Positions 22,398 to 47,349 of a DNA stretch of 64,000 nt are shown in pieces. The first letter of the stretch is position 1. Each line of letters starts with the position of its first letter. The notes beneath the pieces are model-generated. The model made no database searches. It saw only the letters and a list, made by a program, of their open reading frames with translations, and was not told the DNA's origin. The stretch is from Vulcanimicrobiota bacterium (GTDB lineage Bacteria; Vulcanimicrobiota; Xenobia; Xenobiales; JADMJV01): the NCBI GenBank assembly GCA_019637395.1, contig JAHBVR010000009.1, positions 266,412 through 330,411 of the forward strand. The letters run 5' to 3'. A program made the position numbers and the translations under genes.

Positions 22398-22420
22398 AAC
22401 CAAAAAGGGAGGTCGTCACG

Positions 22421-26858: not shown

Positions 26859-27127
26859 GCACGGAAGCGAATTGACGGCTCGTGCCCATCGAAACCCACC
26901 CAAGATGACGCCCTCAACAGGATGCTCGCGCGAGGATTGATCCGCCCCCCCGAGCCAAATATCAGCTATGCCAGGCCACGGGCACATTGTTCCGAGCACG
27001 TCTGGCCGGACCGGGATGATCGTCTTTGAAGTTCTGGGATTCTTCGGCTCTACGCCGTAGTGCTCGTCGAGCCCAGAACTCCGGAGGCCCTCCAAATTCG
27101 CAGCCTGGACCCTGAGTTGGCGGTCTG

Positions 27128-27560
27128 ATGGGCTCGGAGATCGAATGCCGGACGGCCATTGTCCGCAAGCGCCGCGAGAGAGTGCTCGACCAGGCCTCGC
27201 TCAGGCTGGCTCTACAAGGCCTGAGTCAGCTTCTGCGTACGTGTTCTGAAGTGCTGCCATCGACGGAGATCAAAAGGATAGCCGGCCGAATTGGTGACCG
27301 CCACCCTCTCCACGCAGCCGCCGCTCGATTTTGTTGCTTTGACTTAAGGTTGCGGGATGCCGCGCGAGCAGACGGTTTCGGTTGGTCCCCGCCCAAGTCT
27401 AAAGCGCGATCTTGCCCTTTACGTGCTCAACGAAATTTATTGGCGTGATAAGCGCGGACACGAGACCGATCTGGTTTTGCCGTCTCGCCACGGCCGGCTG
27501 ATCACCATCGAATGTCAATGGGCGTTCCGTCGTCAGTATCCCGAGGGAGCCAACCGGGTG
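27128..27560 (+). pseudogene. Decayed C-terminal fragment of an AAA_14/DUF4143-type ATPase gene (frameshifted, N-terminally truncated)
   Basis: Frame +2 IKRIAGR..RFCCFDLRL resembles the DUF4143 middle region. Frame +3 YWRDKRGHETDLVL..ITIECQW resembles the restriction-endonuclease-like C-terminus (YYWR..EVDFVL..IEVK). Stops in all frames near 27335-27350. No room for the N-terminal ATPase domain. Confidence 0.4.
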
Positions 27561-27648
27561 GTTGCCAGTGACGTCGACACCTCCTACCACCGGCAATTCG
27601 ACGAGCTAACCGTGGAGTTTCTCGGATTGAAGGACCTGGTGGAAAGCT

Positions 27649-30600: not shown

Positions 30601-30834
30601 CAGTTCACGCTTGAGGCTGTGGAGAATTTCTTCAACGTCCGCCAGACTCTCGCGTAAGTTCTGGAGACGGAGCAAGGCCAGCCGATCGGCGGCGTAGTTG
30701 ACCATGTCCTGCAGCCCGCTGGTCTCGCGACTGCGCCGGGCCAGTGGCGGCAAGTCAGGATCAACCGCTCCCTCAAAAGAGGAAGCAGCCTGCCGCAGCC
30801 TGCCGGGTAGGTCTGATCCTTGATACTCCGCCAT
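27649..30834 (-). CDS. Large acidic repeat protein with C-terminal tandem PilZ (c-di-GMP receptor-like) domains
   Basis: 1061 aa: coiled-coil N-domain, Pro/Arg-rich linker, about 200-aa D/E/L-rich low-complexity region, 14 copies of PAEVEEPIAVEA, then two PilZ motifs (RRRLVRL..DISLGGGKLQ and QRKYTRA..DIGLGGALLAV). Confidence 0.8.
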   Translation of the reverse strand: MAEYQGSDLPGRLRQAASSFEGAVDPDLPPLARRSRETSGLQDMVNYAADRLALLRLQNLRESLADVEEILHSLKRELEVRRQDGRSVRLTEQLIWEAEQERARLLGQISAAVDVPGIYRERRRRSDSEESFERTADPRTRITQHFSKFHRSREEFTREDYQPVRARGPLYRDQDFEDDVPYYYSRPVESERSSPDFELRKPAGSAETPSWLSVRVERKARTHPPATELRLGGDSPPVRRPRRPKPQPFSLSSGETPTRRSPAGQPKPAPLAWLSRAEKPAARAPLFEPQDITAEDLPAIPEDDELLLQDDLLDDLDLSGEEFELGDLDVGDLDLDELGEFDYDNLDLEGDDLLALDELDANLLFDEDEAELVDEELGAPFLDDLDLELEDDLELAPAVADAEADRAYDIDDSEGLEPFLDAQVDYDLGALEELDELEVGAFDLEVSEDELDLGELADVDLDHLDFDELALDDDLDLLEPEAEMTEVVIDEPLQVDAPEAPVELEEPILIEPPAEVEEPIAVEAPIEVEESIAVEPPAEVEEPIAVEVPAEVEEPIAVEAPAEVEEPIAVEAPVEVEEPIAVEAPIEVEEPITVEAPAEVEEPIAVEAPAEVEEPIAVGVPAEVEEPIAVEAPVEVEEPIAFEAPVEVEEPIAVEAPAEVEEPIAVEVSGELAGPANLFEGPDQQVTEPVFEEPVTEFVSAELPGPDDLFEGQPIVSGEEDFFASSEPLAVIDSPAASGEDLLVGSGESMDVGGDFFGDAGPTTASWLDEPLAEPTAAPVAPTEEAPVSQPSSETSLEAAIEEVAAEEAVAAPPPGAVEAAVATAPSFDGGASAQERRRLVRLACSYDTSAYLEGRPVSVKLVDISLGGGKLQGPASNFQRGQLIQVSNPLPEARVKDPVTARIVWLRPSRDEEGKFDIGLQFEESPEVLGKSWVITVLNKIGMQSKVFNQRKYTRAAANLPIEIDLKTKERHPGTALDIGLGGALLAVDRPLSPTTRFTLHMGPLGNHDKLELNCEVISSRHDEAGIGWTHSAKFAEISTTQTKLLGKYVVDLLKTGGSV
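28838..29345. repeat. 36-bp tandem repeat, about 14 copies (codes for the 12-aa PAEVEEPIAVEA units)
   Basis: Plus-strand unit ggctcttccacctcggccggagcttcgaccgcgatc reiterated with point variants. Confidence 0.85.
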
Positions 30835-32392: not shown

Positions 32393-34264
32393 ATGAGTCA
32401 GGTATCCCTTTTCCGAAAATGGCGCTCCAAAGCTTTTTCCGACCTGGTCGGACAGGAGGCAGTGGTCAAGACCCTGCGCAACGTACTGGCCGGCGGTTCT
32501 CCCGCCCGGGCCTATCTCTTTTGCGGTCCGCGCGGCACGGGTAAAACCAGCACCGCCCGTATTTTTGCCAAAGCGCTGTGCTGCGAAAACGGCCCCGCCC
32601 TGGAACCCTGTAATCACTGTTCCACCTGCCGGGAAATCGCCCAGGGCAACTGCATGGACGTCTTTGAAATCGACGCTGCCTCCAACACGCAGGTCGAGAA
32701 AATCCGCGATTTCATCGTGGACAAAGTGCACTTCGCTCCGGCCAAAGCCCGTTTCAAGGTCTATATCATCGACGAGGTGCACAAACTCTCCACCTCCTCC
32801 TTCAACGCCCTGCTCAAGACGCTGGAAGAACCTCCAGCCCACGTCGTCTTCGTGCTGGCCACCACTCATCCCCATGAATTGCTGCCGACCATCCTCTCCC
32901 GCTGCCAGCGCTACGATTTCCGGGCCTTTTCTCTGACCGAGGTAGAAGCCCACCTGCAGCACATCGCCGTCGAAGAAAAACTCGAACTCGACCCGCTGGC
33001 CCGCCAACTGCTGGCCCGGGCCGCCCAGGGTTCCATGCGCGACGCTCTGGTACTGCTCGAGCAGGCGCAGCACTACAGCGGCGGTGCCGTGCAGCCGGCC
33101 GACGTCGTGCAAATGCTGGGACTGCTGCCTCAGGATACGCTGGGGCGCTGGGTCGAGGCCCTGCGCCAGGGGGACGCGGCCCTCTTGCTGGGAGCAGTGG
33201 AGGATATGCATAGGGGCGGGCAGGATTTCGTGCGCGCTGTCGATCTCTGGGTCGACCACTTGCGGCTGATCATGCTCTCCAAAGTGGGGGCTCACGAAGC
33301 TGGTTTGAGCGAACTGCACGAAGCCTACCGCACGGCTTTGCAAAGCCAGGCGCAAAATTTGACCATGAGCCAGATTCTCAACTGGCTGCGCGCCGCCGTC
33401 GACCTGCAACAGGCCATTCGCGACGGGCAACCCCCACGCATCGCCCTGGAACTATGCCTGGTGGCCCTGTGCGCACCACCTGCTCCCGTGTCCGCAATCG
33501 CGCCCGGCGCAGCCGCCCCTGCCCCCGTAGTGGCCACTCCCGCGCTGGAAGCACTCACCCTTCAGGTGCAGGACCTGCAAGAAAAAGTAAAATCTCTGCT
33601 GACCGCTGCGCGCCCGCGTGGGGAACAGCCGCTTCCCGCGGAAAAGCAACCGGCCGAGCCGCCACGCCCGGCTGCCCGCCGGGAAACTCCACCGCCCACC
33701 CGGGCGCCGGTTGCACCGGCCGCTGAGGTTGATTTCTTAGGACCCCCGCGAGAGGAAGAACGCATTCCACCAGCCCGTTCCGCTGACGCGCCCAGCGACG
33801 ATGACTTTCTGGGTCCCCCGGCCGAAGAAAGACAGGCTCCCCCGCCCCGGCGCGAATCCCCCCGGGCGGCCCAGCGGCCTCCGGCCGAGTTGCCCAACGG
33901 GGGCAAAGCCATCACCCAGGCCCGCGATTTCTGGCCGCATTTGATCCAGAGTCTGAAAGCTCGCGACGGGCGGCTGCAGGCCATGATGAAAGACGCCCAA
34001 CTGCGTGAGTTTCAACCGGATCGCCTGGTCATCTCGTTGTCCTCGACTCTGAAGTTCCACTACGAATACATATCCCGTCAGGTCCGCCTGCTCGAAGAGG
34101 TAAGTAGCGGACTTATGCAAAGCAAGGTGCGCATTGAAGTAGTGGTGGACGGAGCGCAACAGGCGCCCGTCCAAGAACAAGAACACGAGACCCTGGTCAA
34201 GAAAGCCTCCGGCTTGTTCGGAGGTCGCATCTTGGATGCGGCGAATGACACCCAGTCGGATTAG
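32393..34264 (+). CDS. dnaX: DNA polymerase III subunits gamma/tau
   Basis: Walker A GPRGTGKTS, Zn module CNHCSTC, DExx IIDEVHKLS, Pro-rich tau linker. Confidence 0.9.
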   Translation: MSQVSLFRKWRSKAFSDLVGQEAVVKTLRNVLAGGSPARAYLFCGPRGTGKTSTARIFAKALCCENGPALEPCNHCSTCREIAQGNCMDVFEIDAASNTQVEKIRDFIVDKVHFAPAKARFKVYIIDEVHKLSTSSFNALLKTLEEPPAHVVFVLATTHPHELLPTILSRCQRYDFRAFSLTEVEAHLQHIAVEEKLELDPLARQLLARAAQGSMRDALVLLEQAQHYSGGAVQPADVVQMLGLLPQDTLGRWVEALRQGDAALLLGAVEDMHRGGQDFVRAVDLWVDHLRLIMLSKVGAHEAGLSELHEAYRTALQSQAQNLTMSQILNWLRAAVDLQQAIRDGQPPRIALELCLVALCAPPAPVSAIAPGAAAPAPVVATPALEALTLQVQDLQEKVKSLLTAARPRGEQPLPAEKQPAEPPRPAARRETPPPTRAPVAPAAEVDFLGPPREEERIPPARSADAPSDDDFLGPPAEERQAPPPRRESPRAAQRPPAELPNGGKAITQARDFWPHLIQSLKARDGRLQAMMKDAQLREFQPDRLVISLSSTLKFHYEYISRQVRLLEEVSSGLMQSKVRIEVVVDGAQQAPVQEQEHETLVKKASGLFGGRILDAANDTQSD

Positions 34265-34278: not shown

Positions 34279-34662
34279 ATGAGCGATACCCCGAAAATCT
34301 TAGTGGTGGACGACGATGAGCACATCCTTCGCTCACTCAGTCAGTATTTAGAGCTGGAAGACTTCAACGTAGTCAGTGCCTCGAGTGGTCCCGAAGCTCT
34401 CGCGCTCTTCGCCCAAGAAAAACCCGATTTGCTGGTTCTTGACGTGATGATGCCCGGCATGGACGGCTTCCAGGTCTTGGAAACATTACGCAAGGACCCC
34501 GAAACCGCCGGCGTGCCCGTGCTCATGCTGACGGCCCGCGACCAGCACAACGATATTCTCAAAGGCTACCAGATGGGAGCCACCTCCTATCTGGTCAAAC
34601 CCTTCAACTTGGACGAACTCGTGGAAGCCATTCGCGAGGTCTTCGCCAGCAAATCCAGTTAA
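34279..34662 (+). CDS. Single-domain response regulator (CheY-like receiver)
   Basis: ILVVDDDE, phospho-acceptor DLLVLDVMMPGMDG, LMLTAR, K in LVKPF. 127 aa. Confidence 0.85.
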   Translation: MSDTPKILVVDDDEHILRSLSQYLELEDFNVVSASSGPEALALFAQEKPDLLVLDVMMPGMDGFQVLETLRKDPETAGVPVLMLTARDQHNDILKGYQMGATSYLVKPFNLDELVEAIREVFASKSS

Positions 34663-34677: not shown

Positions 34678-34998
34678 ATGCAACGTGAACTGATGCGTAA
34701 AATGCAGAAGATGCAGGAGAAGCTTACCGCTTCGATGGGTCAGATGCAGGAAGAGCTCGAGACCGTAACGGTTGAAGGCACGGCCGGCCAGGGGATGGTG
34801 AAAGCCACCGTCAACGGCCATGGCATGCTGATGTCGATCAAGATCGATCCTAAGGCGGTCGATCCTGAAGACGTGGACATGCTCGAAGACCTGGTCCTGA
34901 CCGCGGTCAAAGACGCCATCGAAAAATCCAAGTCGCTCTCCGGGGACAAGATGTCCAAACTGACCGCGGGCTTGCCGATTCCACCCGGATTCTTCTAG
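34678..34998 (+). CDS. ybaB: Nucleoid-associated protein YbaB/EbfC
   Basis: MQKMQEKL..VEGTAGQGMVKATVNGHGMLMSIKIDP..KLTAGLPIPPGF. RBS AAGGAG. Confidence 0.9.
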   Translation: MQRELMRKMQKMQEKLTASMGQMQEELETVTVEGTAGQGMVKATVNGHGMLMSIKIDPKAVDPEDVDMLEDLVLTAVKDAIEKSKSLSGDKMSKLTAGLPIPPGFF

Positions 34999-35004: not shown

Positions 35005-35616
35005 TTGGACTACCCCGAAGCTCTGGAAGAGTTGGTCGAGTCGCTGCAGCAGTTACCGACCATCGGACCCAAGTCAGCACAACGTTTAGCCTTCTGGCTT
35101 CTGGAAACCGCGGAGCCGAAGGCTTTGCGTTTATCTGAAGCCATTCGTAGCGCTCGCAACCAGATTCGCCCCTGCCGGCGCTGCTTCAATTATAGCGACC
35201 GGGAACTCTGCCAAATTTGCGCCGACCCTCAACGCAAGACGGGGGTGGTATGCGTGGTGGTCCAACCCAAAGACATTGTGGCCCTTGAAAAGACCCGAGA
35301 ATATCGGGGGGGCTACCACGTTTTGGGTGGGCTACTCTCCCCCTTGGACGGTATCGGGCCCGACCAGGTTCGCATCCACGAACTGCTGGAGCGAGTACGC
35401 GAAGAAGCCATAGACGAAGTCATTCTGGCTCTGGACACGACGGTGGGGGGTGAGGCGACCTGCCTCTACCTGTCCCGTCAACTCGGCCCCGAAACTTCGG
35501 TCACCAGGCTGGCCCAGGGACTGCCGGCGGGTGGCAACCTGGATTACACCGATGAAGTCACTCTGGGGCGGGCCTTGCGTGGCCGGCGCCGGGTGGAAGA
35601 TCTGAGCCCACAGTAA
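35005..35616 (+). CDS. recR: Recombination protein RecR
   Basis: HhH LPTIGPKSAQRLAF, C4 zinc finger CRRC..CQIC, Toprim domain. TTG start. Confidence 0.9.
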   Translation: MDYPEALEELVESLQQLPTIGPKSAQRLAFWLLETAEPKALRLSEAIRSARNQIRPCRRCFNYSDRELCQICADPQRKTGVVCVVVQPKDIVALEKTREYRGGYHVLGGLLSPLDGIGPDQVRIHELLERVREEAIDEVILALDTTVGGEATCLYLSRQLGPETSVTRLAQGLPAGGNLDYTDEVTLGRALRGRRRVEDLSPQ

Positions 35617-35628: not shown

Positions 35629-36645
35629 ATGCGCGTCTTTGTAACGGGAGCCACGGGTTTTATCGGAAGAGAGATCGTCCGCCACCTGCAGCAGGCGGGA
35701 CACGATGTCTTCGCCCTGTGCCGCAACCCCGACGATTTGTACGTCAGCAACGTGCAAAAGGTACAGGGTGATATCCTCCAACCTCATACCTTTGAAGCCC
35801 AACTGCGCGAAGCCGAAGCCTGCGTTCACTGCGTCGGCATTCTGCGCGCCTTTCCAGAGAAAGGCATCACTTTTGAAAAACTGCATTATCAGGCCACCCT
35901 CAACCTGGTGCGAGCCTGCGGCAAAGTGGGCGCGCAACGCTTCATCCACATCAGCGCCAACGGCGTGGAGAAGCATCCCACCACCGAGTATATGCGTTCC
36001 AAAGCCAAGTCTGAACAGGCGGTCCGCTCTTCTAGCCTGGATTGGACGATTCTGCGACCCTCGGTCGTTTACGGCGGCAACCCCAACAAAGAAAACTTCG
36101 TCAAAATGCTGCGCGACAATCTTTCCAAGACCAGCCTGTTTCCCTATTTTGGCAAGGGCGAGTATTGCCTGGCGCCCATCTCCACCTGGGAACTGGCCGA
36201 AACCGTGCGCCGCTGCCTGGAGAATCGCGACAGCGTGGGCAAAGTCTACCATCTGGGTGGCGACGAGGTCTATACCTATAAGGCGCTGCTACACTTGATT
36301 TGCGAGGCGGGCGGCTACAAAACGAAGCTTTTCTCCTTGCCTCCGGTGCTGATGAGCACGGCCGCCGGCCTGCTGGGCGGCTTCAAATGGTTTCCCATGA
36401 CCACCGATATGTTGCGCATGCTGACGAGCGGCAATGACATGCCCGCCAACGCTCAGACGCAAAAGGTGCTGGAGGTTCCCAGCGTCAGCTTCCGAGGCTG
36501 GCTCCATCACGGGTTGATGGAACCGGCCGGAGCGGCCGCCTTGACCGAAAAATCCGCAGCCCGCGTCACCACTCAATTGCAGCCCGACGACGCCCCCGCC
36601 GTCAACGCTACCCAACCGCTCAACTCAGAGGACGCCCCAGCATAG
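35629..36645 (+). CDS. NAD(P)-binding atypical SDR (NmrA/epimerase-dehydratase-like)
   Basis: VFVTGATGFIGREIV Rossmann motif, 338 aa. Confidence 0.8.
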   Translation: MRVFVTGATGFIGREIVRHLQQAGHDVFALCRNPDDLYVSNVQKVQGDILQPHTFEAQLREAEACVHCVGILRAFPEKGITFEKLHYQATLNLVRACGKVGAQRFIHISANGVEKHPTTEYMRSKAKSEQAVRSSSLDWTILRPSVVYGGNPNKENFVKMLRDNLSKTSLFPYFGKGEYCLAPISTWELAETVRRCLENRDSVGKVYHLGGDEVYTYKALLHLICEAGGYKTKLFSLPPVLMSTAAGLLGGFKWFPMTTDMLRMLTSGNDMPANAQTQKVLEVPSVSFRGWLHHGLMEPAGAAALTEKSAARVTTQLQPDDAPAVNATQPLNSEDAPA

Positions 36646-38221
36646 CCTCCCCACTGTCCCGAGCACTGCGGTGCAGGCCTTCCAGGACCGCCTCGGCGCC
36701 CTGCAGCTCGTCCAACCGATCCAGTTGCTCCAGGCATTCCAGCCAGATCGACTGCTGCTCGCCTTTGCGCGCATAGGCGGCGGCCGAAGCGAAAGATTGG
36801 GCCGCTCCCTCGAGCTCGCCCCGGGCCAGGCACAAATAGCCGCGCTCGCGTAGCGCCTCACAGCGCAGAGCCGCATCTTTGGGAACCTCGTTGAGCACCT
36901 CGATGGCCAGCATCAAATTACGATTGCATTCGTACAGTCTTCCACGCAAACGCTCAAGGCGGGCGGTCAGGATATAGATCTGAGCGGAATCGGCCGGACC
37001 GGTTCCCTGGCCCAGCATCCAGCCGGCCGCCTGCAAATCCTGACCGGCCTCCTCCAGCAAATTGCGCTCGATCAAGGTACGACTGCGCTCGACCCGAGCC
37101 CGCAGCACGGGATTGCGTTCCCCCAACTGCAAGAACCGCTCCAGACTTTCCGAGAAGAGTTGGCAGGCCTGCTGATTGTCACCCTGAGCTCGATAGGATA
37201 AGCCCAGACTGCTCAAAGCATAGGCCAGAGCGCGGTAGTTGCCAAAGCGCCGGCACATTTCCACGTCCAGTTGGTGAAAGCGAATGGCCCGCGGATAGTC
37301 CCCCAATTTCATACACAGGTTGCCCAGACGGCCGTAGACGACGGCCAGCTCCGACTCGGCTCCCAGGCGGCGGCTCAGCCGCTCGGCTTTGTAAGTGAAG
37401 TGCAGCGCCTCGGTAATCTTGCCCAGGTCGCTGCAAACCTGACCCAGGCCTTCGTAAGCTTTGGCCACGCCGATCCACATCTGCAAATGCCAGTAGGCGC
37501 GCAAAGCTTGTTCAAGGAACTCGAGAGCCCGTTGCGGCTCCCCCTGCTCCTGGTGGAGGAGTCCCAACAAACGGCAGGCCTCGGCCTGGCAACGATCGGG
37601 TCGAGAACGCGGCCGTTCCATCACGTGCAGCCAGGCTTCCTCGGCCTGGTCGAAGCGGTGCAGGCGGAAAAGCACCCGGCCTCGCTCGATGTCGCTTTCG
37701 TCGTCTCCGAGCTGGGGCAGCATGCGTAAAGCTTCCCGCAATTCCCCGGCCCGCACCAACAGGCGCGCTTTCTCCAGTTGCCAGGCGCGCGCGAACTGCC
37801 CCTCCGGGTCCCATTGCCGGGACAGCAGCAAGGCCTGCTGAGCCTGCTCCTGCTCGCCATACATACCATGAATCTGGGCCGAAAGAATCAGGGCGCGAAC
37901 CAACAACGGCTTGAGGGTGATGGAGGTACGCCGGCACAGCAACCCGTCCAACTCATGGGAAGCCTGATCCCAACGCTGTAACTGTACCAACAACTCGGAA
38001 CGCCACAGGCGAATGGCTGCTTTCTGATCGGCCAGACAGGGGTCGTCGGCGGCTTCCTCTTCGAGCCGATCCAGCCAGGCTCCGCCTAGCTCGAGAGCCC
38101 GGCCATAATCAAAACGCGAAAGGCTGTCTTCAATCGTCTCCAGGAAATGCCGGCATAGCTCTACGGCTCGAGCTTGCGTCAGGTAGATTGCGACCAACTT
38201 TTCTAAACTTGCAGGTTGCAA
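36620..38221 (-). CDS. TPR-repeat protein
   Basis: Reiterated TPR-like helix pairs (LGNLCMKLGDYPRAIRFHQ, LAYALSSLGLSYRAQGD and others). No HTH or enzymatic domain recognised. Confidence 0.65.
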   Translation of the reverse strand: MQPASLEKLVAIYLTQARAVELCRHFLETIEDSLSRFDYGRALELGGAWLDRLEEEAADDPCLADQKAAIRLWRSELLVQLQRWDQASHELDGLLCRRTSITLKPLLVRALILSAQIHGMYGEQEQAQQALLLSRQWDPEGQFARAWQLEKARLLVRAGELREALRMLPQLGDDESDIERGRVLFRLHRFDQAEEAWLHVMERPRSRPDRCQAEACRLLGLLHQEQGEPQRALEFLEQALRAYWHLQMWIGVAKAYEGLGQVCSDLGKITEALHFTYKAERLSRRLGAESELAVVYGRLGNLCMKLGDYPRAIRFHQLDVEMCRRFGNYRALAYALSSLGLSYRAQGDNQQACQLFSESLERFLQLGERNPVLRARVERSRTLIERNLLEEAGQDLQAAGWMLGQGTGPADSAQIYILTARLERLRGRLYECNRNLMLAIEVLNEVPKDAALRCEALRERGYLCLARGELEGAAQSFASAAAYARKGEQQSIWLECLEQLDRLDELQGAEAVLEGLHRSARDSGEAMLGRPLS

Positions 38222-38239: not shown

Positions 38240-39169
38240 ATGATAAGAGGGAACTCTTTTGAGGAGCTTGACGACTCCTCCTTTGAAGGAAGTAAGCCTG
38301 ATTTGAGCATGGTCATGTTGCAAAGAGAATGGAGCCTCCAGATGGCCCGCAAGGAACCGGGCCGGTCCGGAGGCTACCCTGGTTTGTTCTGGGCGGCCAT
38401 CGCCCTGAGCTTGCCGCTGCTTCACCATGCCCTGGCCTCGTATCGACTGGATTTCTTGCCTGAACGGCGCGGCTCGTTTGAACTGGCTGGATTCTGGCTG
38501 ATCGGACTTACCTGTTTGCGCGCCTGCATCAGCTGCGCCGCCAGTATGGCCGAAGAAGTCCAGCACCATTCGATCCAGTTGGTACGCCAGCTTCCTCGCT
38601 CGGGCGGCCTGGCCGGCCTGCTCCTCACGAAAATCGCCGTTGCCTCCATACCCCTGCTCATGGAGTGGGGACTGTTCGCAGGTCTGGCCGGTTTGCTCTG
38701 GTTGTTGGGAGTGCCGGTGCAGGACTGGAACTCCGGGCGTTTTCTGGCGGTCGGCCTCACCTCAATGCTCTTTTTCTCCTCGTTGGGTTTGTGGATTGGC
38801 GCGCGTCTGGCCGAACCCGAACGGGCCGTCAACAACGCCCGCGTGGCCGTAGTTATGACACTGGTGGGCTGGGCGATGCTCGAGAGTGTCCTCAAGGGCC
38901 CCACTTTGCTGATCGCCGCCCTCATCTGGATTGGCTTCATGTTTCGCTCCAGCCCGCGCGTCACTTCCGCCTTCCAGGGCGGAGTCATCAGCGCCGTGGT
39001 GGTCCTGCTGCTACCGCAGGCCTATATGCTGGGTGACCTGCGTCTGGCCCAGATGAGCCCTCTGATGGCTGCTTCGAACCCGGATTTGACGCGCGATGAC
39101 TGCATTCTCTACTGCGTCGGCACCGTAGCCATCTTACTGCTGAACCTTCGCCAGTTGAGGAAGCTATAG
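38240..39169 (+). CDS. Hypothetical polytopic membrane protein
   Basis: 309 aa, multiple hydrophobic helices. Immediately followed by the next ORF. Confidence 0.45.
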   Translation: MIRGNSFEELDDSSFEGSKPDLSMVMLQREWSLQMARKEPGRSGGYPGLFWAAIALSLPLLHHALASYRLDFLPERRGSFELAGFWLIGLTCLRACISCAASMAEEVQHHSIQLVRQLPRSGGLAGLLLTKIAVASIPLLMEWGLFAGLAGLLWLLGVPVQDWNSGRFLAVGLTSMLFFSSLGLWIGARLAEPERAVNNARVAVVMTLVGWAMLESVLKGPTLLIAALIWIGFMFRSSPRVTSAFQGGVISAVVVLLLPQAYMLGDLRLAQMSPLMAASNPDLTRDDCILYCVGTVAILLLNLRQLRKL

Positions 39170-39988
39170 GTGGCCCTGGGGCCGCAGTTGCCCGAGTCCC
39201 CCCATCGCGGCGAACGGCGCCTGCTGGATCGGGCCATGTTTTTGGGCGACATCGGGCGTACCGGCAAATCCTCGGAAACCAACCTCAAGGAGGCTGGCAA
39301 CCGTGACCCTTTCAAGATGTTTCTTGAAAAAGAGGTAAACCAGGAAGACGAATTGGTCGAAAAAAAGGCCGAAGGTGACGTGACGGAGGCGGCTGTCGAG
39401 AGCGAGGCCGGTTCAGCCGCCAGCCAGGAAGTCAAGGACGACCAGGTAGAGAACCGCAAGGACGCCGATCGCCAGGCGCTTGAGGGCGGGGCCGAGCAGG
39501 CCGAGCGCGCCACCGCCTCCAACCACGGCTTGTGGCGCGGCCCGCAACTCAATATGGGAGCTGCCATGGTGAGCGTACCCCAGCAATTGCAGGCGCAGCA
39601 GCTGGAGAAGCAGGGACGCGCCCAGAAGCAGCGTGATACCGGCGACAGAGAAAAACTGGAAGAAGGCAAGCAGCGCGTGGACGACGCTCTCTTGCAAGCT
39701 CTGCGTCAGTCGGGACTGGCCCACCCGGTCACCGGCTTCGCCGATCCTCGCCTGCAAGGCGGCCGGCCCCAACTCGGTCCGGAGTGGGCCGTCAAAAACC
39801 AGGTTTACCGCTGGGAGTCCTCGCCCGGTCATCGCCAGGTGCTGCGCTGGGGTGACAAAGAGAGCCTGCTGGAGACCACCGCCGCCGGTCAACGCCAGGT
39901 CATTCAGAAGCTGGGTGAGCAATTCTGGTCGCAAACCACCCTCTGGGACAGCGACACCGGCTTTGACATTTCTAACGACAGCCGCTGA
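39170..39988 (+). CDS. Hypothetical charged/low-complexity protein
   Basis: GTG directly after the upstream TAG. Glu/Gln-rich. No family recognised. Confidence 0.35.
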   Translation: MALGPQLPESPHRGERRLLDRAMFLGDIGRTGKSSETNLKEAGNRDPFKMFLEKEVNQEDELVEKKAEGDVTEAAVESEAGSAASQEVKDDQVENRKDADRQALEGGAEQAERATASNHGLWRGPQLNMGAAMVSVPQQLQAQQLEKQGRAQKQRDTGDREKLEEGKQRVDDALLQALRQSGLAHPVTGFADPRLQGGRPQLGPEWAVKNQVYRWESSPGHRQVLRWGDKESLLETTAAGQRQVIQKLGEQFWSQTTLWDSDTGFDISNDSR

Positions 39989-40025: not shown

Positions 40026-40262
40026 ATGAGAATCATTAACGTCCACGAAGCCAAGACACATCTTTCCAAGCTACTAGAGGACGTAAAAGCCGGCGAGGAG
40101 ATCGTGCTGGCCAAAATGGGAAAACCCTATGCCAGGTTGGTGCCCATAGACCAGCCCAAGCCGGTAAGGCTGGGATTTTTAAGCGGTTCGGTCGGTGACG
40201 ATATTCTCCAACCCATGTCGGATGAAGAGTTGGCAGACTGGGAAGGGCCGATCCACCCTTGA
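40026..40262 (+). CDS. vapB: Type II antitoxin (Phd/YefM-type, VapB-like)
   Basis: IINVHEAKTHLSKLLEDVKAGEEIVLAKMGKPYARLVP. 4-nt overlap with the downstream PIN gene. Confidence 0.75.
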   Translation: MRIINVHEAKTHLSKLLEDVKAGEEIVLAKMGKPYARLVPIDQPKPVRLGFLSGSVGDDILQPMSDEELADWEGPIHP

Positions 40263-40648
40263 TACGCCTTCTTCTGGATACCCATGCGCTGCTCTGGGCC
40301 TGGACGGAGCCTGCAAAATTGTCGGAGACCGCCCGCGCATTGATTCAAGAACCTTCGAATACTCGTTGGGTCTCGCCCGTGACCGGTTTTGAGATCTCCC
40401 AGAAGTATCGATTGGGAAAGCTGCAGGTGGAGCCTGGCCTGGTCAGCAACTACACCGACCATCTGCGCACTTTCCAGGCAGAAGAACTCCCCCTCCTGTC
40501 AAAACACGCTCTGTATGCCGGTGGGCTTCCAGGCGAACATAGAGACCCGTTCGACCGTCTTCTGGCCGCCCAGAGTTTGTTAGAAGGTGTTCCCTTGCTG
40601 ACCGCCGACCCGGCCTTCCTCGGCTTTGGAGTCCAGACGATTTGGTAA
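40259..40648 (+). CDS. vapC: PIN-domain toxin VapC
   Basis: LLDTHALLW (Asp1), DPFDRLLAAQ, C-terminal Asp in LLTADP. Confidence 0.85.
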   Translation: MIRLLLDTHALLWAWTEPAKLSETARALIQEPSNTRWVSPVTGFEISQKYRLGKLQVEPGLVSNYTDHLRTFQAEELPLLSKHALYAGGLPGEHRDPFDRLLAAQSLLEGVPLLTADPAFLGFGVQTIW

Positions 40649-40738
40649 TGCGAAACCTCTGACATTGCAATTGCACAGCCGGCCGCCTGAGCGAAGAGCA
40701 ACTGGCCGCCTGGTTCAGGCAGCGCCTTCCAGGCTCTC

Positions 40739-42322
40739 TCACTTGCTGACGACCTCGACATGTTGACCCTGAATCCAGGAAACCTCGAGTCGGACCGGCA
40801 CAGATAGTTCTTTCTGCAATCGATCCCGCCACTGCTTCCAAAGCCCGGCGCGCGGTCTGGTGGGCATCTGCAGGCTGACGACGAGCGAAAGTTCGCTTCC
40901 GCTCAGGCTGGCCCGAGCTTCGACCAGCCAGACCTCAGGTAGCTTTTCTACCTGTTCGTGCAGCCACTTTAACGCTCGCGCCTCCAGTTTCTGACGGAGT
41001 AACTCAGCCTCGCCAACCACTTTCTCGGGCGCAAATTGCAGGGGTCCGTCTTCGGTGTAATCATAGATTACGGTGGTGCGAACGGTGAGCTTCAATTGAT
41101 ACTGCCTCTGGCCGCGCTGGCTCAGGAATTGTTGGGTTGTCTGTTGCAGTTTTCCGACCAGTTCGCTTTCGAAGACATAGGGGCTGCGCAAACTCACCAG
41201 CAATTCCGCGGCTGGCGGCTCCAGACGCAGGCTGCGGAAATTGACCAGTTCCACTTGAGAAAACTGTTTTATCGCCTCCTGAAGAGCCCATTCGGCATCC
41301 GTTCGGAATACGTCTTCAGCGCTCGGCTCGGCTCGCAGCGGGGCAAAAAGCCTGCCCTCCGGCGCCACATAGCTGGACAAAGCCGTACCCACGCGCAGGT
41401 CGATGGTTTCCGGCAACCGCCTTTGCAGCAGGTCGCGCAGGGACTGGACAAAACCCACGGTCAGTTCCTCAGGAGCGCGCACCAGCAAGTCGATTTGCAG
41501 CCGCTGAGCCTGCAGCCTGAGACGGGTCGACTCCAGCCGCGCACCGGGAAGATTGGCCAGGGCCTGATTAACGACTTCCCGGGTCACCCGTTGCGCGTAG
41601 CGTTCCTGCATCAATTGCCGCAATTGGCGCTCCAAAAACCAGGCCGTTCCTCCCAACAGCAGCAGGTTTAAGGCCAGCGCCCGCACCAAGGAAGGATTGC
41701 GCCGCAGCTCGGCCCATTGGGAGAGGCCGGCCAGGGTAAAGACCACGGCGCTGGCCAACTGAATGGCCACAAAGTTAGCCAAGAACAACATGACGGCGCC
41801 GAAGGCTTCACTATAGAGACCGCCGCCCAGGCAAAGGCCAGCGGTGCACAAGGGAGGAACCAGAGTCACCGCGATGGCCACGCCGGCCACGCTCTCCGAG
41901 ACACGTTTGTCCACCGAGGCATAGGCGCCTGCCAGCCCGGCGGCAAACCCAATAGCCATATCCAGCAGAGTTGGCCGGAAGTTGGCCGCGATCTGCTGTT
42001 GCGAGTAATCCAGTTGCTCAGGACCAAAGAACCTGGCCAGCAACAGGCCGGTGACCAGACAAATCAGCGTTCCCACTCCTTCGCTTAAGAGAGAGCGGCG
42101 AAATCGTCTCATTTCCCCGCGTACCAATCCCAACGAAATCCCCAGGATGGGACCGGTCAAAGGAGCCATGGTGGCCGCTCCGATCACGGTCGCCGGAGAG
42201 TTTGCCAGCAACCCGAAAGTGCACACAGCCGCGGACAAAACCATCAAAGCCCCATAAGCGCGATGGAAGGCCGCCATGGAGTCGATTTTCTTGAGAATGA
42301 CCTGCTCTGGCAGACGCATCAA
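40739..42322 (-). CDS. Membrane protein with N-terminal multi-TM domain and large C-terminal soluble domain (possibly DUF389/TIGR00341-like)
   Basis: 527 aa. Hydrophobic first roughly 230 aa, then an Arg/Leu/Gln-rich soluble region. Confidence 0.55.
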   Translation of the reverse strand: MMRLPEQVILKKIDSMAAFHRAYGALMVLSAAVCTFGLLANSPATVIGAATMAPLTGPILGISLGLVRGEMRRFRRSLLSEGVGTLICLVTGLLLARFFGPEQLDYSQQQIAANFRPTLLDMAIGFAAGLAGAYASVDKRVSESVAGVAIAVTLVPPLCTAGLCLGGGLYSEAFGAVMLFLANFVAIQLASAVVFTLAGLSQWAELRRNPSLVRALALNLLLLGGTAWFLERQLRQLMQERYAQRVTREVVNQALANLPGARLESTRLRLQAQRLQIDLLVRAPEELTVGFVQSLRDLLQRRLPETIDLRVGTALSSYVAPEGRLFAPLRAEPSAEDVFRTDAEWALQEAIKQFSQVELVNFRSLRLEPPAAELLVSLRSPYVFESELVGKLQQTTQQFLSQRGQRQYQLKLTVRTTVIYDYTEDGPLQFAPEKVVGEAELLRQKLEARALKWLHEQVEKLPEVWLVEARASLSGSELSLVVSLQMPTRPRAGLWKQWRDRLQKELSVPVRLEVSWIQGQHVEVVSK

Positions 42323-42333
42323 GCCTGGTTCGT

Positions 42334-43152
42334 CTAGGCCCGACCTGACTCCGTCAGAGCGATGAGCACTTCCATGAGTTCCTCCAACTGATCCTGGTTC
42401 CGGTAGTAAAGCTCAATCTTGCCCTTGTCCTTGCTGGACGGGCGTATTTTCACCACCGCGTTCAGTTGCTGGCCCAGTTGTTGCTGAATGTGCTCCCAGT
42501 CGGGAGTCAAACTCTTGCCTTTGCGCGCCGGCTTCTGCTCGTGCAGTTTGCGAATGAAATCCTCGGTCGCGCGCACCGACAGTTGCCGCTCGCGGATCTC
42601 GTGCCAGGCGCGCAACTGGTTACGCTCCCCTTCCAGCGAGAGTACGGCCCGGGCATGGCCGGCGCTCAGAACGCCGGCTTCCAAGTCTGCCAGAATGGAA
42701 GGGGGCAGGCTGAGCAGGCGGATGGCGTTGGCTACGGCCGGCCGGCTGCAGCCCAGGCGCCGGGCCAGTTCGTCCTGGGTCAGCTTGTGCTCGCGCAGCA
42801 AGAATTGAAAGGCGCGGGCTTCCTCGACCGGGTTCAGATCCTGGCGCTGCAGGTTCTCGATCAAGGCCACTTCCAACAGATTCTGCGGTGCGAACTCCTG
42901 GATCAAGGCCGGGATCTCTTCCAGGCCGGCCAATCGCGAAGCGCGCCAACGGCGCTCGCCCACCACCAGGCGGTAGCCTTCGGGCTCGCGAGTGACCACC
43001 ACCGGCTGCACCACGCCGTGCAATTGAATGGAGTCGGCCAGTTCCTGCAGGCGCTCCTGGTCGAAGCGCCGGCGCGGCTGCAAAGGGTTGGCGCGAATCT
43101 GGCGGATGGGTAAAACGGCAAAACCGTTCTCGGGAGACTTGGGCTTACTCAT
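42334..43152 (-). CDS. parB: Chromosome partitioning protein ParB/Spo0J
   Basis: ParB box II GERRWRA, HTH TQDELARRLGCSRPAVANAIRLL, N-terminal LPIRQIRANPLQPRR, C-terminal dimerisation domain. Confidence 0.9.
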   Translation of the reverse strand: MSKPKSPENGFAVLPIRQIRANPLQPRRRFDQERLQELADSIQLHGVVQPVVVTREPEGYRLVVGERRWRASRLAGLEEIPALIQEFAPQNLLEVALIENLQRQDLNPVEEARAFQFLLREHKLTQDELARRLGCSRPAVANAIRLLSLPPSILADLEAGVLSAGHARAVLSLEGERNQLRAWHEIRERQLSVRATEDFIRKLHEQKPARKGKSLTPDWEHIQQQLGQQLNAVVKIRPSSKDKGKIELYYRNQDQLEELMEVLIALTESGRA

Positions 43153-43167
43153 GTTTCACGTGAAACA
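43152..43167. other. parS centromere-like site, perfect consensus TGTTTCACGTGAAACA
   Basis: 16-bp palindrome read directly, abutting or overlapping the parB start codon. Confidence 0.8.
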
Positions 43168-43611
43168 TTGGCTTTCGTTTTTCAGATTTCCTTCGGCTTG
43201 ACCCCTTATACTCCAGCCATGGAGATCTCGCTCCCCGGGCGCCAGACGGCGGCCACCGCCAAGGATGCCTACAAGCACTATAAAAGCCTGGACAACACCC
43301 CCCAGGATCGCGATCCGCGCGACCATTTTATCGAATTTACCCAGGAAGGCCAGAACGTTGAGGTCGCTCTCACGCCCTCGGGATTTCTGGCCCGCCAGAC
43401 CCAGGCGGAGCAGGTCACCATCACCCGGGCCGAGGTGCCTCGCTGGATAGGCAAGGCTCAAGTCGAGGTGGTGTGCCGCACTACCCAGGGGGCCTACAGT
43501 GGATTTTTAGGCGGGGTAGACATCACTCCCGACAACGAGGGACAAGAACGCGCCCGGCAGGTCTTTTATCAGTGGCAGAAGCCTCTGCAGAAGCCTGGCT
43601 GCGGTGGCTGA
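43168..43611 (+). CDS. Hypothetical protein (likely start at MEISLPGRQ, about 43219)
   Basis: Coding-like composition. Divergent from parB. No family recognised. Confidence 0.4.
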   Translation: MAFVFQISFGLTPYTPAMEISLPGRQTAATAKDAYKHYKSLDNTPQDRDPRDHFIEFTQEGQNVEVALTPSGFLARQTQAEQVTITRAEVPRWIGKAQVEVVCRTTQGAYSGFLGGVDITPDNEGQERARQVFYQWQKPLQKPGCGG

Positions 43612-43644
43612 CCCTGACCCACAAACTCCGCCGGTCGGCGGGGC

Positions 43645-44238
43645 CTAAGCGACAGCCCTCTCGAAGGCCGGGCGGGTGCACACTCGCTTGAAGTAAGCGC
43701 GCACGTGCTCAAATCCCTCGAGCAAATTCATCATCTGGGCCCAGCCCAGAATCGAACCGAAAATCACATCCACCATGGAGAAGCGCTCCCCCAGCAGATA
43801 CGAGCGGCTGGCCAGGTGGTCGTCGGCAATGCCCAGAGCGCGGTCAAAACCCTCTTTGGCTCTGGTAGCGCGCTCGGCCGAGCGTTCCTCCTCGGGTAAG
43901 CGCACGGTGTGCAGAAAGATCTCCAGCAAATGTGGTTCCAGGGCAGCTCCTACAAAAAAGGCCCACTGGTAGTATTGGTGGCGTTCCTCGGCAGTCGGCG
44001 CCAGCCCGGCCCGGGGAAAGCGGTCGGCCAGGTAGAGAGCAATAGCCGAAGCCTCCGTCACCACTTGATCGCCATCCACCAGCGTGGGAATTTGTCCCAG
44101 CGGATTGGCCTTTTGCAGCTCCGAGTTGTTCAGATCATCAGGAAACTTGAGACGAATCAGCTCGTGCGCAGCAGCCACTTCTTCCAAGGCCCAGCGCGAG
44201 GACACCGCCCGGGTTTGGGGGGCGTAAAAGAGTTTCAC
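43645..44238 (-). CDS. Glutathione S-transferase
   Basis: N-terminal thioredoxin-like MKLFYAPQTRAVSSRWALEE..IPTL, C-terminal GST helices. Confidence 0.85.
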   Translation of the reverse strand: MKLFYAPQTRAVSSRWALEEVAAAHELIRLKFPDDLNNSELQKANPLGQIPTLVDGDQVVTEASAIALYLADRFPRAGLAPTAEERHQYYQWAFFVGAALEPHLLEIFLHTVRLPEEERSAERATRAKEGFDRALGIADDHLASRSYLLGERFSMVDVIFGSILGWAQMMNLLEGFEHVRAYFKRVCTRPAFERAVA

Positions 44239-44935
44239 GACCTGGCCACCTCCACTTCGTGGGCTATCTGATAGGCGGGGCGGGCCTTGAGCTTTCCGAT
44301 GTAGCCACGCAAGCCGGGAAAATCCCCCAGCAGTCCCTGCATATCCGCCCAGTCCAGAGCGGAACCCACCAGCACGTCGGCGGCCGTGAAGCGCTCCTCG
44401 GCAATAAAGGAGCGGTTGGCCAGGTGATCGCTGATAATCTGGAGACGCGCCTGCAATAAGTTTTTGGCCTGCTCGACGCGTTCAGGCTTGCGTTGCTCCT
44501 CCGGTAGAAAGCGAGTGTGCAGAAAGATCTCCAGCAGTTGATGCTCCAGCGTGTTGTAGATGTAGAAGCAAAAGCGGTAATAATCCCCCGTTTGTCTAGA
44601 GCCGGAGCCAGAGTCCCCGGCTTGTAACGGTCGGCCAGGTACAGGCAAATAGCCCCGGACTCGCAAATCACCCGATCCCCATCCTGCAGGACCGGGATCT
44701 GGGTGAGCGGGTTCAGCTTGCGAAACTCCGGCTGGCGCTGGTCGCCGGCACGCAAATCCATGGGTACGATTTCGTAATCCAGGCCCAGTTCTTCCAACAC
44801 CCAACGAGGCCGGGTTGCTCGGGACTGTTTTGAGTAATACAGCTTCATCATAGGTTCCGCCACTTTGAAAAAAATCCCAGACTCCCTGTAGGACTTAAGT
44901 CCGTTCGGAGCCTGGCCATTTGGCCAGGTCAACAC
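44235..44935 (-). pseudogene. Glutathione S-transferase paralog disrupted by a +1 frameshift in a G5 homopolymer
   Basis: N-terminal half in ORF 44264..44935 (MKLYYSKQSRATRPRWVLEE..ADRYKPGTLAP), C-terminal half in ORF 44235..44804 (YYRFCFYIYNTLEHQLLEIFLHT..). Frames join if one G is removed from aaacgggggatt near 44600. Confidence 0.7.
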
Positions 44936-44988: not shown

Positions 44989-47349
44989 ATGAATCAGATC
45001 CAACCCCTCCTAGTCATCCGCAACTCGGTCCTGTTTCCTCACATGGTGACTCCCATCACCGCGTCACGGGGCCGCTCCATCGCGGCCGTCGAGGCGGCTC
45101 TCGAGGGTGATCGCTCGCTGATCGTCGTGACGCAGCGCGATCTCTCGGTGGAAGAGCCGACTCAGGACGACCTCTACACAATCGGCACACGCGTGACCAT
45201 TCAAAAGGCCACCCGCGGTCAGAACGGCTTCCAGGTCGTGCTCCAGGGGGTGGAACGAGTCCGTCTGGTCAAGCTGGAGCCCGGCAAACCCTATCTGCAG
45301 GCCCGCTTTCAGGTTCTTCCCATTCAGGAAGACCGTAGCGCCGTGGTCGAGGCTCTGCATCGCAGCGTGCTTGATCTTTCCGCTCAACTGCTGACCCTGA
45401 TGGGCCAGACGCAACGCCAGGGCGCCAAAGCCGTGCTGGATCAACTGACCTCTCAACTGACCGACCCGATGCAGTTGGCCTACTTCATCGCCGGCTTCAT
45501 GAAGCTGGAACTCGAGAAAGAGCAACAAGTGCTGGAAGCCTCCAGCCGCATGGAGGCTCTTGAGCTGATCCACAAGTTTTTGGCCCACGAGTTGGAAGTC
45601 CAGCAAGTGCGCCAGCGCCTCCATAGCCAGGTTCAAAACGAGATGGGCAAGGAGCAGAAGGACTACTTGCTGCGCCAACAGTTGCGCGCCATCCAGAACG
45701 AGCTGGGCGAAGACGACAGCGATCGGGCTGAACTGCAAATCCTGCGCGAAAAGCTGGACCAGGCGGAACTTCCGGAAGAGGCCCGCAAGGAAGCCGACCG
45801 GGAGCTGAAACGCCTGGAACGACTCAATCCCTCTTCCCCAGACCATTCGCTGACGCGCGGCTATCTGGAGCTGCTCTCGGAGCTGCCCTGGAACAAGACC
45901 ACCGAGGACAACCACGACTTGAAGCGTGCCCGCGGCATACTTGAGGAAGACCACTTCGGACTCAAGACGGTCAAAGAACGCATTCTCGAGCACCTGGCCA
46001 TCATGAAGCTGAACGCTGGCGCCAAGGCGCCCATCGTTCTGCTGGTGGGGCCGCCTGGTGTGGGCAAAACTTCGCTGGGCCAGAGCATCGCTCGAGCCCT
46101 GGATCGAAAGTTCGAGCGCCTTTCCCTGGGCGGTCTGCACGACGAAGCTGAACTGCGCGGCCATCGCCGCACCTACATCGGAGCCTTACCGGGCCGTCTG
46201 ATTCAGGGCCTGCGCCGGGCCGGCGTGAAGAACCCCGTCTTGATGCTGGACGAAGTCGACAAACTGGGCAACAGCTACCGCGGCGACCCCGCCTCGGCCT
46301 TACTCGAGGTGATCGATCCGGCCCAAAACGACAAATTCCGCGACAACTACCTGGACCTGCCTTTTGACCTGTCCAAAGTGCTCTTCATCCTGACCGCCAA
46401 CACCACCGATTCGATCCCGCGACCCCTGCTCGACCGCATGGAAGTGATTCGTCTTAGCGGCTACAGCGAGGAAGAAAAGCATCAGATTGCCCGCCGTTAC
46501 CTGCTGCCGCGCGTCATCAAAGAGGCGGGTCTATCCGAAGATTCGCTGAGCTTGAGCGACGAGACTCTGGCGCATATCATTTCACGCTACACCCGGGAAG
46601 CCGGTGTGCGCGAACTGGAACGAGTGCTGGGCAAGCTGGTGCGCAAACTGGCCTTGCGCTTCGCCGAAGCTGAAGGGCCGAGCGCCATCGAGCTTTCCAC
46701 TGCGGAAGCAGTAGAACTGCTGGGTGCCGAGCGTTTCTTGCCCGAGTCGGCTCGCACGGAAAAACACCCGGGCGTGGCCACCGGCCTGGCCTGGACCGAG
46801 GTGGGCGGCGACGTGCTCTACGTGGAGTCGATCAGCCTGCCTTCGGGCAAGGGGCTGACCTTGACCGGTCAGCTGGGCGACGTCATGAAAGAGTCGGCCC
46901 AGGCGGCCCAGAGCTACGTGCTTTCCAAGGCACGCAGCTTCGGGTTGCCCGACAAGTTGCCGCGCACCGAGGGCGTGCATATTCATGTGCCCGCCGGCGC
47001 CATCCCCAAAGACGGACCTTCCGCCGGCGTCACCATGGCGGTGTCGTTGCTGAGCGCCTACACCGGCATCGCCGCCCGCAAGGATCTGGCCATGACCGGA
47101 GAGATCACCTTGACGGGACTGGTTCTGCCGGTGGGCGGAATCAAGGAGAAGGTGCTGGCCGCTCGGCGCGCCGGCATCAAAACCGTGATTTTACCCAAGG
47201 AGAATGAGCGCGATCTGAAGGAGCTTCCCGATAACGTGAGGGCTGAGATGACCTTTTATCCGGTTGGCCATCTCGACGAAGTTTTCGCGGTAGCGCTGCC
47301 CGACCTGGAAAAGCGCGGGCTGAGCGTAGTGGATATGCGGGCCTCGTAA
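44989..47349 (+). CDS. lon: ATP-dependent Lon protease
   Basis: Walker A GPPGVGKTS, catalytic Ser DGPSAGVT, catalytic Lys GGIKEKVLAARRAGIKTVILP, 786 aa. Confidence 0.95.
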   Translation: MNQIQPLLVIRNSVLFPHMVTPITASRGRSIAAVEAALEGDRSLIVVTQRDLSVEEPTQDDLYTIGTRVTIQKATRGQNGFQVVLQGVERVRLVKLEPGKPYLQARFQVLPIQEDRSAVVEALHRSVLDLSAQLLTLMGQTQRQGAKAVLDQLTSQLTDPMQLAYFIAGFMKLELEKEQQVLEASSRMEALELIHKFLAHELEVQQVRQRLHSQVQNEMGKEQKDYLLRQQLRAIQNELGEDDSDRAELQILREKLDQAELPEEARKEADRELKRLERLNPSSPDHSLTRGYLELLSELPWNKTTEDNHDLKRARGILEEDHFGLKTVKERILEHLAIMKLNAGAKAPIVLLVGPPGVGKTSLGQSIARALDRKFERLSLGGLHDEAELRGHRRTYIGALPGRLIQGLRRAGVKNPVLMLDEVDKLGNSYRGDPASALLEVIDPAQNDKFRDNYLDLPFDLSKVLFILTANTTDSIPRPLLDRMEVIRLSGYSEEEKHQIARRYLLPRVIKEAGLSEDSLSLSDETLAHIISRYTREAGVRELERVLGKLVRKLALRFAEAEGPSAIELSTAEAVELLGAERFLPESARTEKHPGVATGLAWTEVGGDVLYVESISLPSGKGLTLTGQLGDVMKESAQAAQSYVLSKARSFGLPDKLPRTEGVHIHVPAGAIPKDGPSAGVTMAVSLLSAYTGIAARKDLAMTGEITLTGLVLPVGGIKEKVLAARRAGIKTVILPKENERDLKELPDNVRAEMTFYPVGHLDEVFAVALPDLEKRGLSVVDMRAS

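Follow-up and report, generated by a model that had tools for sequence, protein, structure and literature searches.

A perfect parS site touching the start codon of an orphan parB gene in a Vulcanimicrobiota chromosome, and its possible origin by deletion of parA

The stretch of DNA analysed here (64,000 nucleotides, hereafter referred to as the window) comes from a Vulcanimicrobiota bacterium (assembly GCA_019637395.1, contig JAHBVR010000009.1, positions 266,412–330,411). It carries the chromosome partition gene parB on the minus strand (42334–43152), encoding a protein of 272 amino acids, and a perfect consensus parS site, TGTTTCACGTGAAACA, at positions 43152–43167, which overlaps the parB start codon by a single base. 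No parA gene was detected in the window, and a similar contact between parS and the start of parB recurs in related loci without parA; the observation is confirmed as real, and is conserved across the clade. The explanation that I find probable is that this is a ParA-less ParB-parS(-SMC) module of an Eremiobacterota (Vulcanimicrobiota) chromosome, derived from the deletion of parA in a parS-parA-parB operon. An orphan parB, a parS close to a par operon and local repression by ParB are each already known, and the locus is a modest variant of a known system, not a new kind of system.

The parS site at 43152–43167 is the single perfect copy in the window, where by my own arithmetic ∼3e-5 perfect 16-mers would be expected over 64 kb and both strands. 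Its symmetry extends to 18 bp (ATGTTTCACGTGAAACAT, 43151–43168), of which the 16-bp site is the core. On the minus strand the junction reads ...CCAA TGTTTCACGTGAAACA TG AGT AAG..., position 16 of parS being the A of the parB ATG (43150–43152), and parS spans positions −15 to +1 of the parB open reading frame (ORF). In the parB frame the site is read as ACG TGA AAC ATG, and because of this in-frame TGA the ORF cannot begin further upstream. There is no Shine-Dalgarno sequence between parS and the ATG, and no room for one. With a cognate 16-bp site of the TGTTNCACGTGAAACA type on the same replicon as parB, positions 43152–43167 are the presumed ParB loading site, or centromere. A second parS-like site, GATTTCCCGTGAAACA, is present at 14278–14293 in a glyoxalase-family gene, with three mismatches and a perfect right half-site. 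At up to three mismatches, two sites are observed in the window for 0.11 expected from window shuffles, and the one at 14278–14293 may be a chance occurrence or a weak half-site.

The parB product shows the Pfam domains ParB_N (8.8e-32), HTH_ParB (4.3e-33) and ParB_C (5.5e-12), and the identical 272-residue protein is deposited at NCBI (MBX3169085.1 / MCW5866523.1). It carries a GERRWRAS CTP-binding box and an ENLQRQDLNP box, and possesses the central parS-binding helix-turn-helix (HTH) and the C-terminal dimerisation domain of type Ia ParB proteins. The segment VVGERRWRASRLAG, containing the GERRxRA arginine patch of the type Ia N-domain, aligns to the Spo0J/ParB structures. Among proteins of solved structure, its best match is to Thermus thermophilus Spo0J (1vz0; E = 2e-55), whose chain residue 22 aligns with residue 10 of the query, followed by Myxococcus xanthus ParB and Bacillus subtilis Spo0J, ahead of Noc (5e-46) and far ahead of KorB (5.5e-11).

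The presence of Noc and KorB among these structural relatives brings up the possibility that the gene is a diverged paralogue, Noc-like, KorB-like or derived from a plasmid or prophage, with the true partition locus elsewhere. Other phyla do possess ParB paralogues with a short N-terminus, probably encoded by noc genes, with parS upstream and parAB beside them (L029, L040, L042). Noc proteins bind a site of their own and not parS, carry a membrane-targeting helix at the N-terminus, and are encoded next to parAB. Here, the adjoining site is the parS consensus, no parAB is nearby, the N-terminal tail is proline-rich, and the Spo0J/ParB structures outscore Noc. In addition, the window ParB is 59–65% identical to the parA-linked ParBs of the same phylum, and nested among them on the tree described below; its gene is syntenic with the core genes dnaX, ybaB and recR across the clade; and the slot adjacent to rsmG is without a second parAB. 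I therefore regard a paralogue as very improbable.

The N-terminus is where the protein departs from type Ia ParBs. In these, a basic N-terminal peptide, LG(R/K)GL, contacts and activates ParA. The window ParB begins with MSKPKSPENGFAVLP, and is devoid of this ALGRGLSALL ParA-activating peptide; lysines at positions 3 and 5 (MSKPKSPEN) are kept in its short tail.

The partner of this peptide was not found either. A tblastn search of all 64 kb with B. subtilis Soj and two ParAs of the same phylum gave a best E-value of 0.28; in related loci the search covered flanks of up to 10 kb. A tripartite ParABS arrangement, with a Soj-type ParA encoded together with parB, was found neither in the window nor in 11 related loci with a short-form ParB. 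The initial annotation of this DNA had described parB as an orphan, with a perfect parS touching its ATG, a divergent hypothetical gene in place of parA as upstream neighbour, and a broken rsmG-parA-parB order. All of these hold for the local context: the overlap is of exactly one base, the upstream neighbour (43219–43611, plus strand) has no Pfam match, and rsmG (gidB; 26193–26858, plus strand, Pfam GidB 7.2e-42), the last gene of an rpmH-rnpA-yidC-jag-mnmE-mnmG-rsmG cluster, ends 16.3 kb from the start of parB. The order remains intact in a distant locus of the same phylum, L023, where the genes are arranged in textbook fashion as jag-mnmE-mnmG-rsmG-parA-parB; the slot behind rsmG that holds parAB in L023 is without parAB in the window. 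The same annotation had placed a pseudogene remnant and a PilZ gene behind rsmG. A weak DUF4143 fragment and a 1,061-amino acid PilZ protein are indeed encoded there, but the remnant is not that of parA. No convincing gene occupies the ∼790 bp at 26858–27649, and an ORF at 27357–27779 has a weak match to the C-terminus of DUF4143 (E = 4.7e-4, below the Pfam cut-off), the sole domain signal. A parA relic was considered for this stretch and rejected: Soj gave only a 12-residue match (27209–27244), and the same-phylum ParAs gave nothing at 26858–27649.

The nearest genomes to that of the window are metagenome-assembled genomes (MAGs) of Vulcanimicrobiota/Eremiobacterota, and their ParBs fall into two forms. 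All 25 ParB clusters that are at least 71% identical to the window ParB have a short N-terminus, no ALGRGL, and the NPxQPR box at residue 11–34. Nearly all clusters at 52–67% identity start with MKKRALGRGLSALL (residue 5), and have the NPxQPR box at residue 36–56. A few possess a decayed version of the tail motif, namely P0028 (PLARGLDFA), P0034 (KKRAAHGFSDIL), P0041 and P0055. In a neighbour-joining tree of the ParB core region, where P0028 and P0025 branch first, the short forms make up one clade nested among the long forms.

The distribution of parA follows that of the tail. It is located directly upstream of long-form parB in L020/L021, L023, L058 and the P0026 contig. In contrast, none was found within 8–64 kb of parB in the 12 short-form loci, that is, the window (64 kb), L001, L002, L003, L018/L019, L022, L024, L041, L054, L055, L056 and L059, and there is none on the whole 12,192-nt P0018 contig. 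The short-form loci share with the window two conserved hypothetical genes, the genes for a TPR protein and an epimerase, ytxH, recR, ybaB, a response regulator gene and dnaX. In L022 and L054, the genes upstream are common to the parA-bearing P0026 contig (a cNMP-binding Lactamase_B protein, citrate synthase and His_Phos_1), which argues that parA was lost in place. The clade-wide loss of the peptide is matched by that of the adjacent parA, which speaks against a complex that still drives a ParA gradient. Of the well-documented roles of ParB, those left are to load SMC and to organise the region of the origin.

The location of parS was then compared between both kinds of loci. Among parA-bearing loci, DNA for the placement of parS was available for three: it lies 25 nt upstream of the parA ATG in L058 (CGTTTCACGTGAAACA), 41 nt upstream in L020 (TGTTTCACGTGAAACT), and 54 nt upstream in L023, where the site is perfect. 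The ancestral layout in the phylum, as these loci show, is parS, 25–55 nt with a Shine-Dalgarno sequence, parA, and a parB beginning with MKKRALGRGLSALL. Among short-form loci, parS overlaps the parB ATG by one base in the window, L001, L002, L041, L024 and L059; it abuts the ATG in L003 and L054, lies 5 nt upstream of parB in L055, and contains the called GTG start in L056. In 10 of the 12 loci, parS therefore overlaps, abuts or lies no further than 5 nt from the parB start codon, and this recurrence indicates that the contact is inherited, not accidental. In the left arm of parS, one to three of the outermost bases vary (AGTTTC..., ATTTTC..., GGATTC...), with a constant core, TTCACGTGAAACA, and L056 has at its parB start a sequence, GAAACATCCTC, that is also present in the leader of parA in L058. 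L023 contains two perfect parS sites (1884–1899 and 5177–5192); the first is located between mnmE and mnmG, abutting the mnmG ribosome-binding site (TGTTTCACGTGAAACATGGGAGG), and the second is the one 54 nt upstream of parA.

A metagenome-wide pattern scan for parS 40–70 nt upstream of the NPxQPR box returned 29 loci, of which a single one, L041, with a ParB 91% identical to that of the window, was of the window type. Most of the others encode long ParBs with parA adjacent and an intragenic parS in a linker, translated as ...VSRET... in those cases where it is in frame; a few are the probable noc loci of other phyla mentioned above. A parS fused to the parB start codon appears to be specific to this Eremiobacterota clade, and not widespread. 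The linker sites, which are consensus parS with the GLGRGL tail on one side and the NPxQPR box on the other, were seen in other phyla in L033, L036–L039, L043, L045, L047, L050 and L053.

These comparisons suggest a simple origin for the window arrangement. Starting from an ancestral parS-parA-parB operon, a deletion of parA would have put parS beside parB. With this deletion or after it, the first ∼20–30 codons of parB would have been lost, the tail, now useless, having decayed or been deleted. The parB ORF would then begin at the first start codon past parS, with the old operon leader fused to parB, and the new ATG would combine the extended palindrome's ...ACA|T flank with the next base, G. 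Since parS was already in the leader of the par operon, as in L020, L023 and L058, its position is explained first by history, and selection for regulation is not needed.

One locus, L057 (5964–8230), belongs to a separate lineage that groups with the long forms, and looks like an intermediate of parA loss. It has no parA, and its parS (AGTTTCACGTGAAGCA) lies 23 nt upstream of parB, with a Shine-Dalgarno sequence between the two and a full-length but decayed ParB tail, MKKRAAHGFSDIL; the parA slot is filled by two unrelated genes, for a 259-amino acid, secreted-looking protein and a hexapeptide-repeat protein. This suggests that parA loss was recurrent in the phylum, and the tail has decayed independently in L057 and P0028, exactly in the places that lack parA. 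The phylum offers a natural series, from an intact parS-parA-parB operon, through loci in which parA is gone and the tail is decaying (L057, P0028), to those in which the tail is deleted and parS fused to parB. This series supports the view that the N-terminal peptide of ParB exists for ParA.

Proteins of the ParB/Spo0J family load at parS as CTP-bound dimers, then close to form a clamp and slide. By analogy, the window ParB, as a CTP-bound dimer, would load at 43152–43167, close, and move onto the flanking DNA. Lacking ParA and the activating tail, the complex would mainly recruit SMC and organise the chromosome, and would not power segregation through ParA. An smc gene, for the SMC condensin that is a feature of Streptococcus pneumoniae-type systems, is present in the window (5670–9233, plus strand, 1,187 amino acids; Pfam SMC_N 1.8e-65, SMC_hinge 3.8e-24). 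From what is known of the family, this SMC is the likely client of ParB-parS when ParA is absent, and the module is most likely a ParA-independent centromere that loads SMC.

The closest precedent is S. pneumoniae, which has an orphan parB, four parS sites and no parA, and where deletion of parB reduces SMC loading near the origin (PMC7022226). Both systems possess a chromosomal ParB, consensus-type parS, no adjacent parA and an encoded SMC, and in both the complex would be expected to organise the region of the origin and to load SMC, and not to act in transport driven by ParA. Unlike S. pneumoniae, the window comes from a different phylum, from uncultured Eremiobacterota, and has one parS in 64 kb, fused to the start codon of parB; in addition, the loss of parA, seen in the window at the local scale, can be traced here through relatives that keep parS-parA-parB. 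It would be a case, outside the Firmicutes, of a phylum in which ParB-parS has been kept in the absence of ParA. Compared to canonical ParABS systems (T. thermophilus, B. subtilis Soj-Spo0J, and L020, L023 and L058), the window ParB has the same ParB_N domain with GERRxRA, HTH and ParB_C, and the same 16-bp parS, and the par transcription unit has this parS at its 5′ end, just as in the parAB operons of the phylum. The locus differs from them in the local absence of parA, in the lack of ALGRGLSALL, and in the move of parB away from rsmG.

A third step in the proposed mechanism concerns the expression of parB. ParB bound to parS would hinder RNA polymerase at initiation or just past it, so that parB, and possibly the divergent gene too, would come under negative feedback. 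This step is plausible, and the least certain of the three. The geometry of the site argues with moderate strength for such an autorepression of parB transcription. The intergenic region between the two genes is only 66 bp long (43153–43218), and contains parS as well as a conserved block; both genes would need to have their promoters within this sequence or just upstream of it. The block, GAAGG(N3-4)TTTC-like, lies 20–27 nt upstream of parS (in the window at 43176–43194, where it reads CCGAAGGAAATCTGAAAAA), and recurs in L001–L003, L024, L058 and L023, that is, in parA-linked and parA-less loci alike; it does not match the sigma-70 −35/−10 consensus. A TATACT hexamer at 43209–43214, 41 bp from parS and 4 nt upstream of the ATG of the divergent gene, is the likely −10 element of that gene, which would then have little or no leader and no Shine-Dalgarno sequence.

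Autoregulation is not a generally known property of type Ia ParBs encoded on chromosomes. The Pseudomonas aeruginosa ParB represses genes (PA0011, PA0013) downstream of the intergenic sites parS3 and parS4 (PMC7022226). As in that case, and in the autoregulation of plasmid ParB/KorB, a ParB-family operator lies here in the 5′ region of a gene, in a geometry that would allow ParB to occlude a promoter or to act as a roadblock for RNA polymerase. Unlike in P. aeruginosa, the affected gene would be parB itself, and the site touches the start codon; repression here is putative.

The initial annotation had also suggested that ParB autoregulates its own translation or transcription. Direct control of translation is unlikely, as ParB binds duplex DNA. 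If the transcript includes the whole palindrome, the RNA is predicted to fold into a hairpin of 7 bp in which the A and the U of the AUG are paired, and an effect at the RNA level would come from this hairpin in cis, independently of ParB. The interpretation first given to this locus is, all in all, partly supported. In Caulobacter crescentus, a 5′ mRNA structure of parB is reported in a 2026 preprint to set ParB abundance post-transcriptionally (PMC13371061). The parB gene would have a structured element at its 5′ end in both cases; the Caulobacter structure differs in that it enhances ParB levels and is not a parS. The control of chromosomal ParB levels is still described in this preprint as open.

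Several points weigh against the reading of a ParA-independent module with a feedback on parB, and two further explanations build on them. The first points concern its scale. The absence of ParA is seen over the 64 kb of the locus, and for the whole genome it is putative. In an indirect check of low power, none of the top 120 ParA homologues was traced to contigs with a short-form ParB, and the few NCBI accessions recovered, for 10 of these homologues, were not near those of the window ParB. The lysines K3 and K5 may leave some residual contact with a ParA-like ATPase. The origin of replication (oriC) is not in the window: there is no GC-skew switch (the skew being weakly negative throughout) and no DnaA-box cluster in it, and no dnaA gene anywhere in the 64 kb. 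In S. pneumoniae-type systems parS lies close to oriC; for parS-parB of the window, the one hint of a nearby origin is the rpmH-to-rsmG cluster, at a distance of 16–22 kb. Genomes often have dnaA and oriC just upstream of rpmH.

It could then be that parA, or a ParA-like ATPase of the CpsD type, is encoded elsewhere and cooperates with this ParB, and that the system is still ParABS-like. The visible sequence is indeed 64 kb of a genome, the short tail retains two lysines, and the S. pneumoniae ParB works with the ParA-like CpsD (PMC7022226). Against this stand the loss of ALGRGLSALL throughout the clade, its independent decay in L057 and P0028, the very places that lack parA, the lack of ParA within 8–64 kb of parB in all 12 short-form loci, and, with little power, the failure to trace a top ParA homologue to the same contigs. 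I consider this explanation quite unlikely.

The other points concern the regulatory step of the favoured module. No promoter was identified around parB: a sigma-70 consensus scan of 42200–43700 returned none, a reading by eye of −10-like hexamers around parS did not single one out, and none is claimed for parB. ParB clamps leave parS by sliding. The in-frame TGA forces the ORF to start just past parS, whether this is selected or not, and passive retention of the contact is possible. The spacer between parS and parB is not rigid, with 0 nt in L003 and L054, 5 nt in L055 and 23 nt in L057. In the basal short-form lineages L018/L019 and L022, no parS was found within 10 kb of parB, and a ParA-less ParB thus does not require the juxtaposition. 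Lastly, B. subtilis ParB (Spo0J) bound at parS leaves the expression of adjacent genes unchanged (PMC7022226).

Together with the presence of parS in the parAB leader of L020, L023 and L058, these regulatory points make a case for the contact being a historical relic, in which parS is a working centromere and its contact with the start codon is merely a scar of the parA deletion, with no effect on parB expression. Against this, the juxtaposition has been kept in 10 of 12 loci of the clade, when the 45 nt upstream of parS and the first ∼10 codons of parB cannot be aligned between sub-lineages. It is also hard to see how expression would be unaffected by a 16-bp site that has protein bound to it at −15 to +1 and leaves no space for a Shine-Dalgarno sequence, and the P. 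aeruginosa repression described above is a further argument against it. A relic is the less probable reading, and the ParA-less module with at least a potential for feedback the one I prefer.

A stronger version of this preferred reading is that the arrangement is a selected dosage device, in which one 18-bp palindrome acts as the main ParB loading site of the chromosome, as an operator by which bound ParB keeps down the expression of parB and of the divergent gene, and as a hairpin at the 5′ end of the mRNA in which the AUG is paired. I regard this as unlikely; if true, occupancy of the centromere would be linked directly to the synthesis of ParB, in bacteria whose chromosome segregation does without ParA. 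A single parS at the parB start makes for a simple test case of self-regulation by a chromosomal CTP-clamp ParB.

The divergent gene (43219–43611) encodes a 130-amino acid protein, and is a clade-restricted neighbour of parS-parB. It adjoins parB in L001–L003 and L024, and is found near parB in L055 and L056, where it has a 147-amino acid paralogue. Only 14 homologues were identified among 5.8 billion proteins, and their alignments show the invariant motifs GFLARQ and GAYSGFLGG. The AlphaFold model of this protein is unusable (pLDDT 47). As a bolder extension of the unlikely dosage-device reading, the product of this gene, which shares its control region with parB, might be a new ParB partner that replaces ParA.

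On the other side, the parB stop codon is followed after 11 nt by a gene for a 527-amino acid DUF389 membrane protein (40739–42322, minus strand), itself next to a Phd/YefM-PIN toxin-antitoxin pair (40026–40648; Phd/YefM antitoxin 40026–40262, PIN toxin 40259–40648). Then come the genes for two hypothetical proteins (38240–39988), the first with a sub-threshold ABC-2 membrane match only, a TPR protein (36620–38221, minus strand) and an epimerase (35629–36645), followed by recR (35005–35616), ybaB (34678–34998), a response regulator gene (34279–34662) and dnaX (32393–34264). In L001–L003, L018 and L024, parB is directly followed by the two conserved hypothetical genes, without the 40026–42322 block, which therefore looks like an insertion in the window. 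Beyond the divergent gene lie two GST genes (43645–44935) and lon (44989–47349).

The rpmH-to-rsmG cluster consists of rpmH (starting at 20981), rnpA (21119–21481), yidC (21681–22397), jag (22394–22981), mnmE (22948–24327) and mnmG (24340–26208), followed by rsmG. Directly upstream of rpmH, a 1,234-amino acid protein with glutamine amidotransferase and SIS domains is encoded on the plus strand (17214–20918). Behind rsmG, the PilZ gene (27649–30834, minus strand) encodes a protein with two C-terminal PilZ domains and acidic repeats, in a long, highly acidic region with many tandem copies of a ∼12-residue unit (PAEVEEPIAVEA). A 1,235-amino acid gene product in L023 was considered as a homologue of this protein and set aside, no similarity being detected. 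In the short-form relative L018, a PilZ protein is encoded in the same position.

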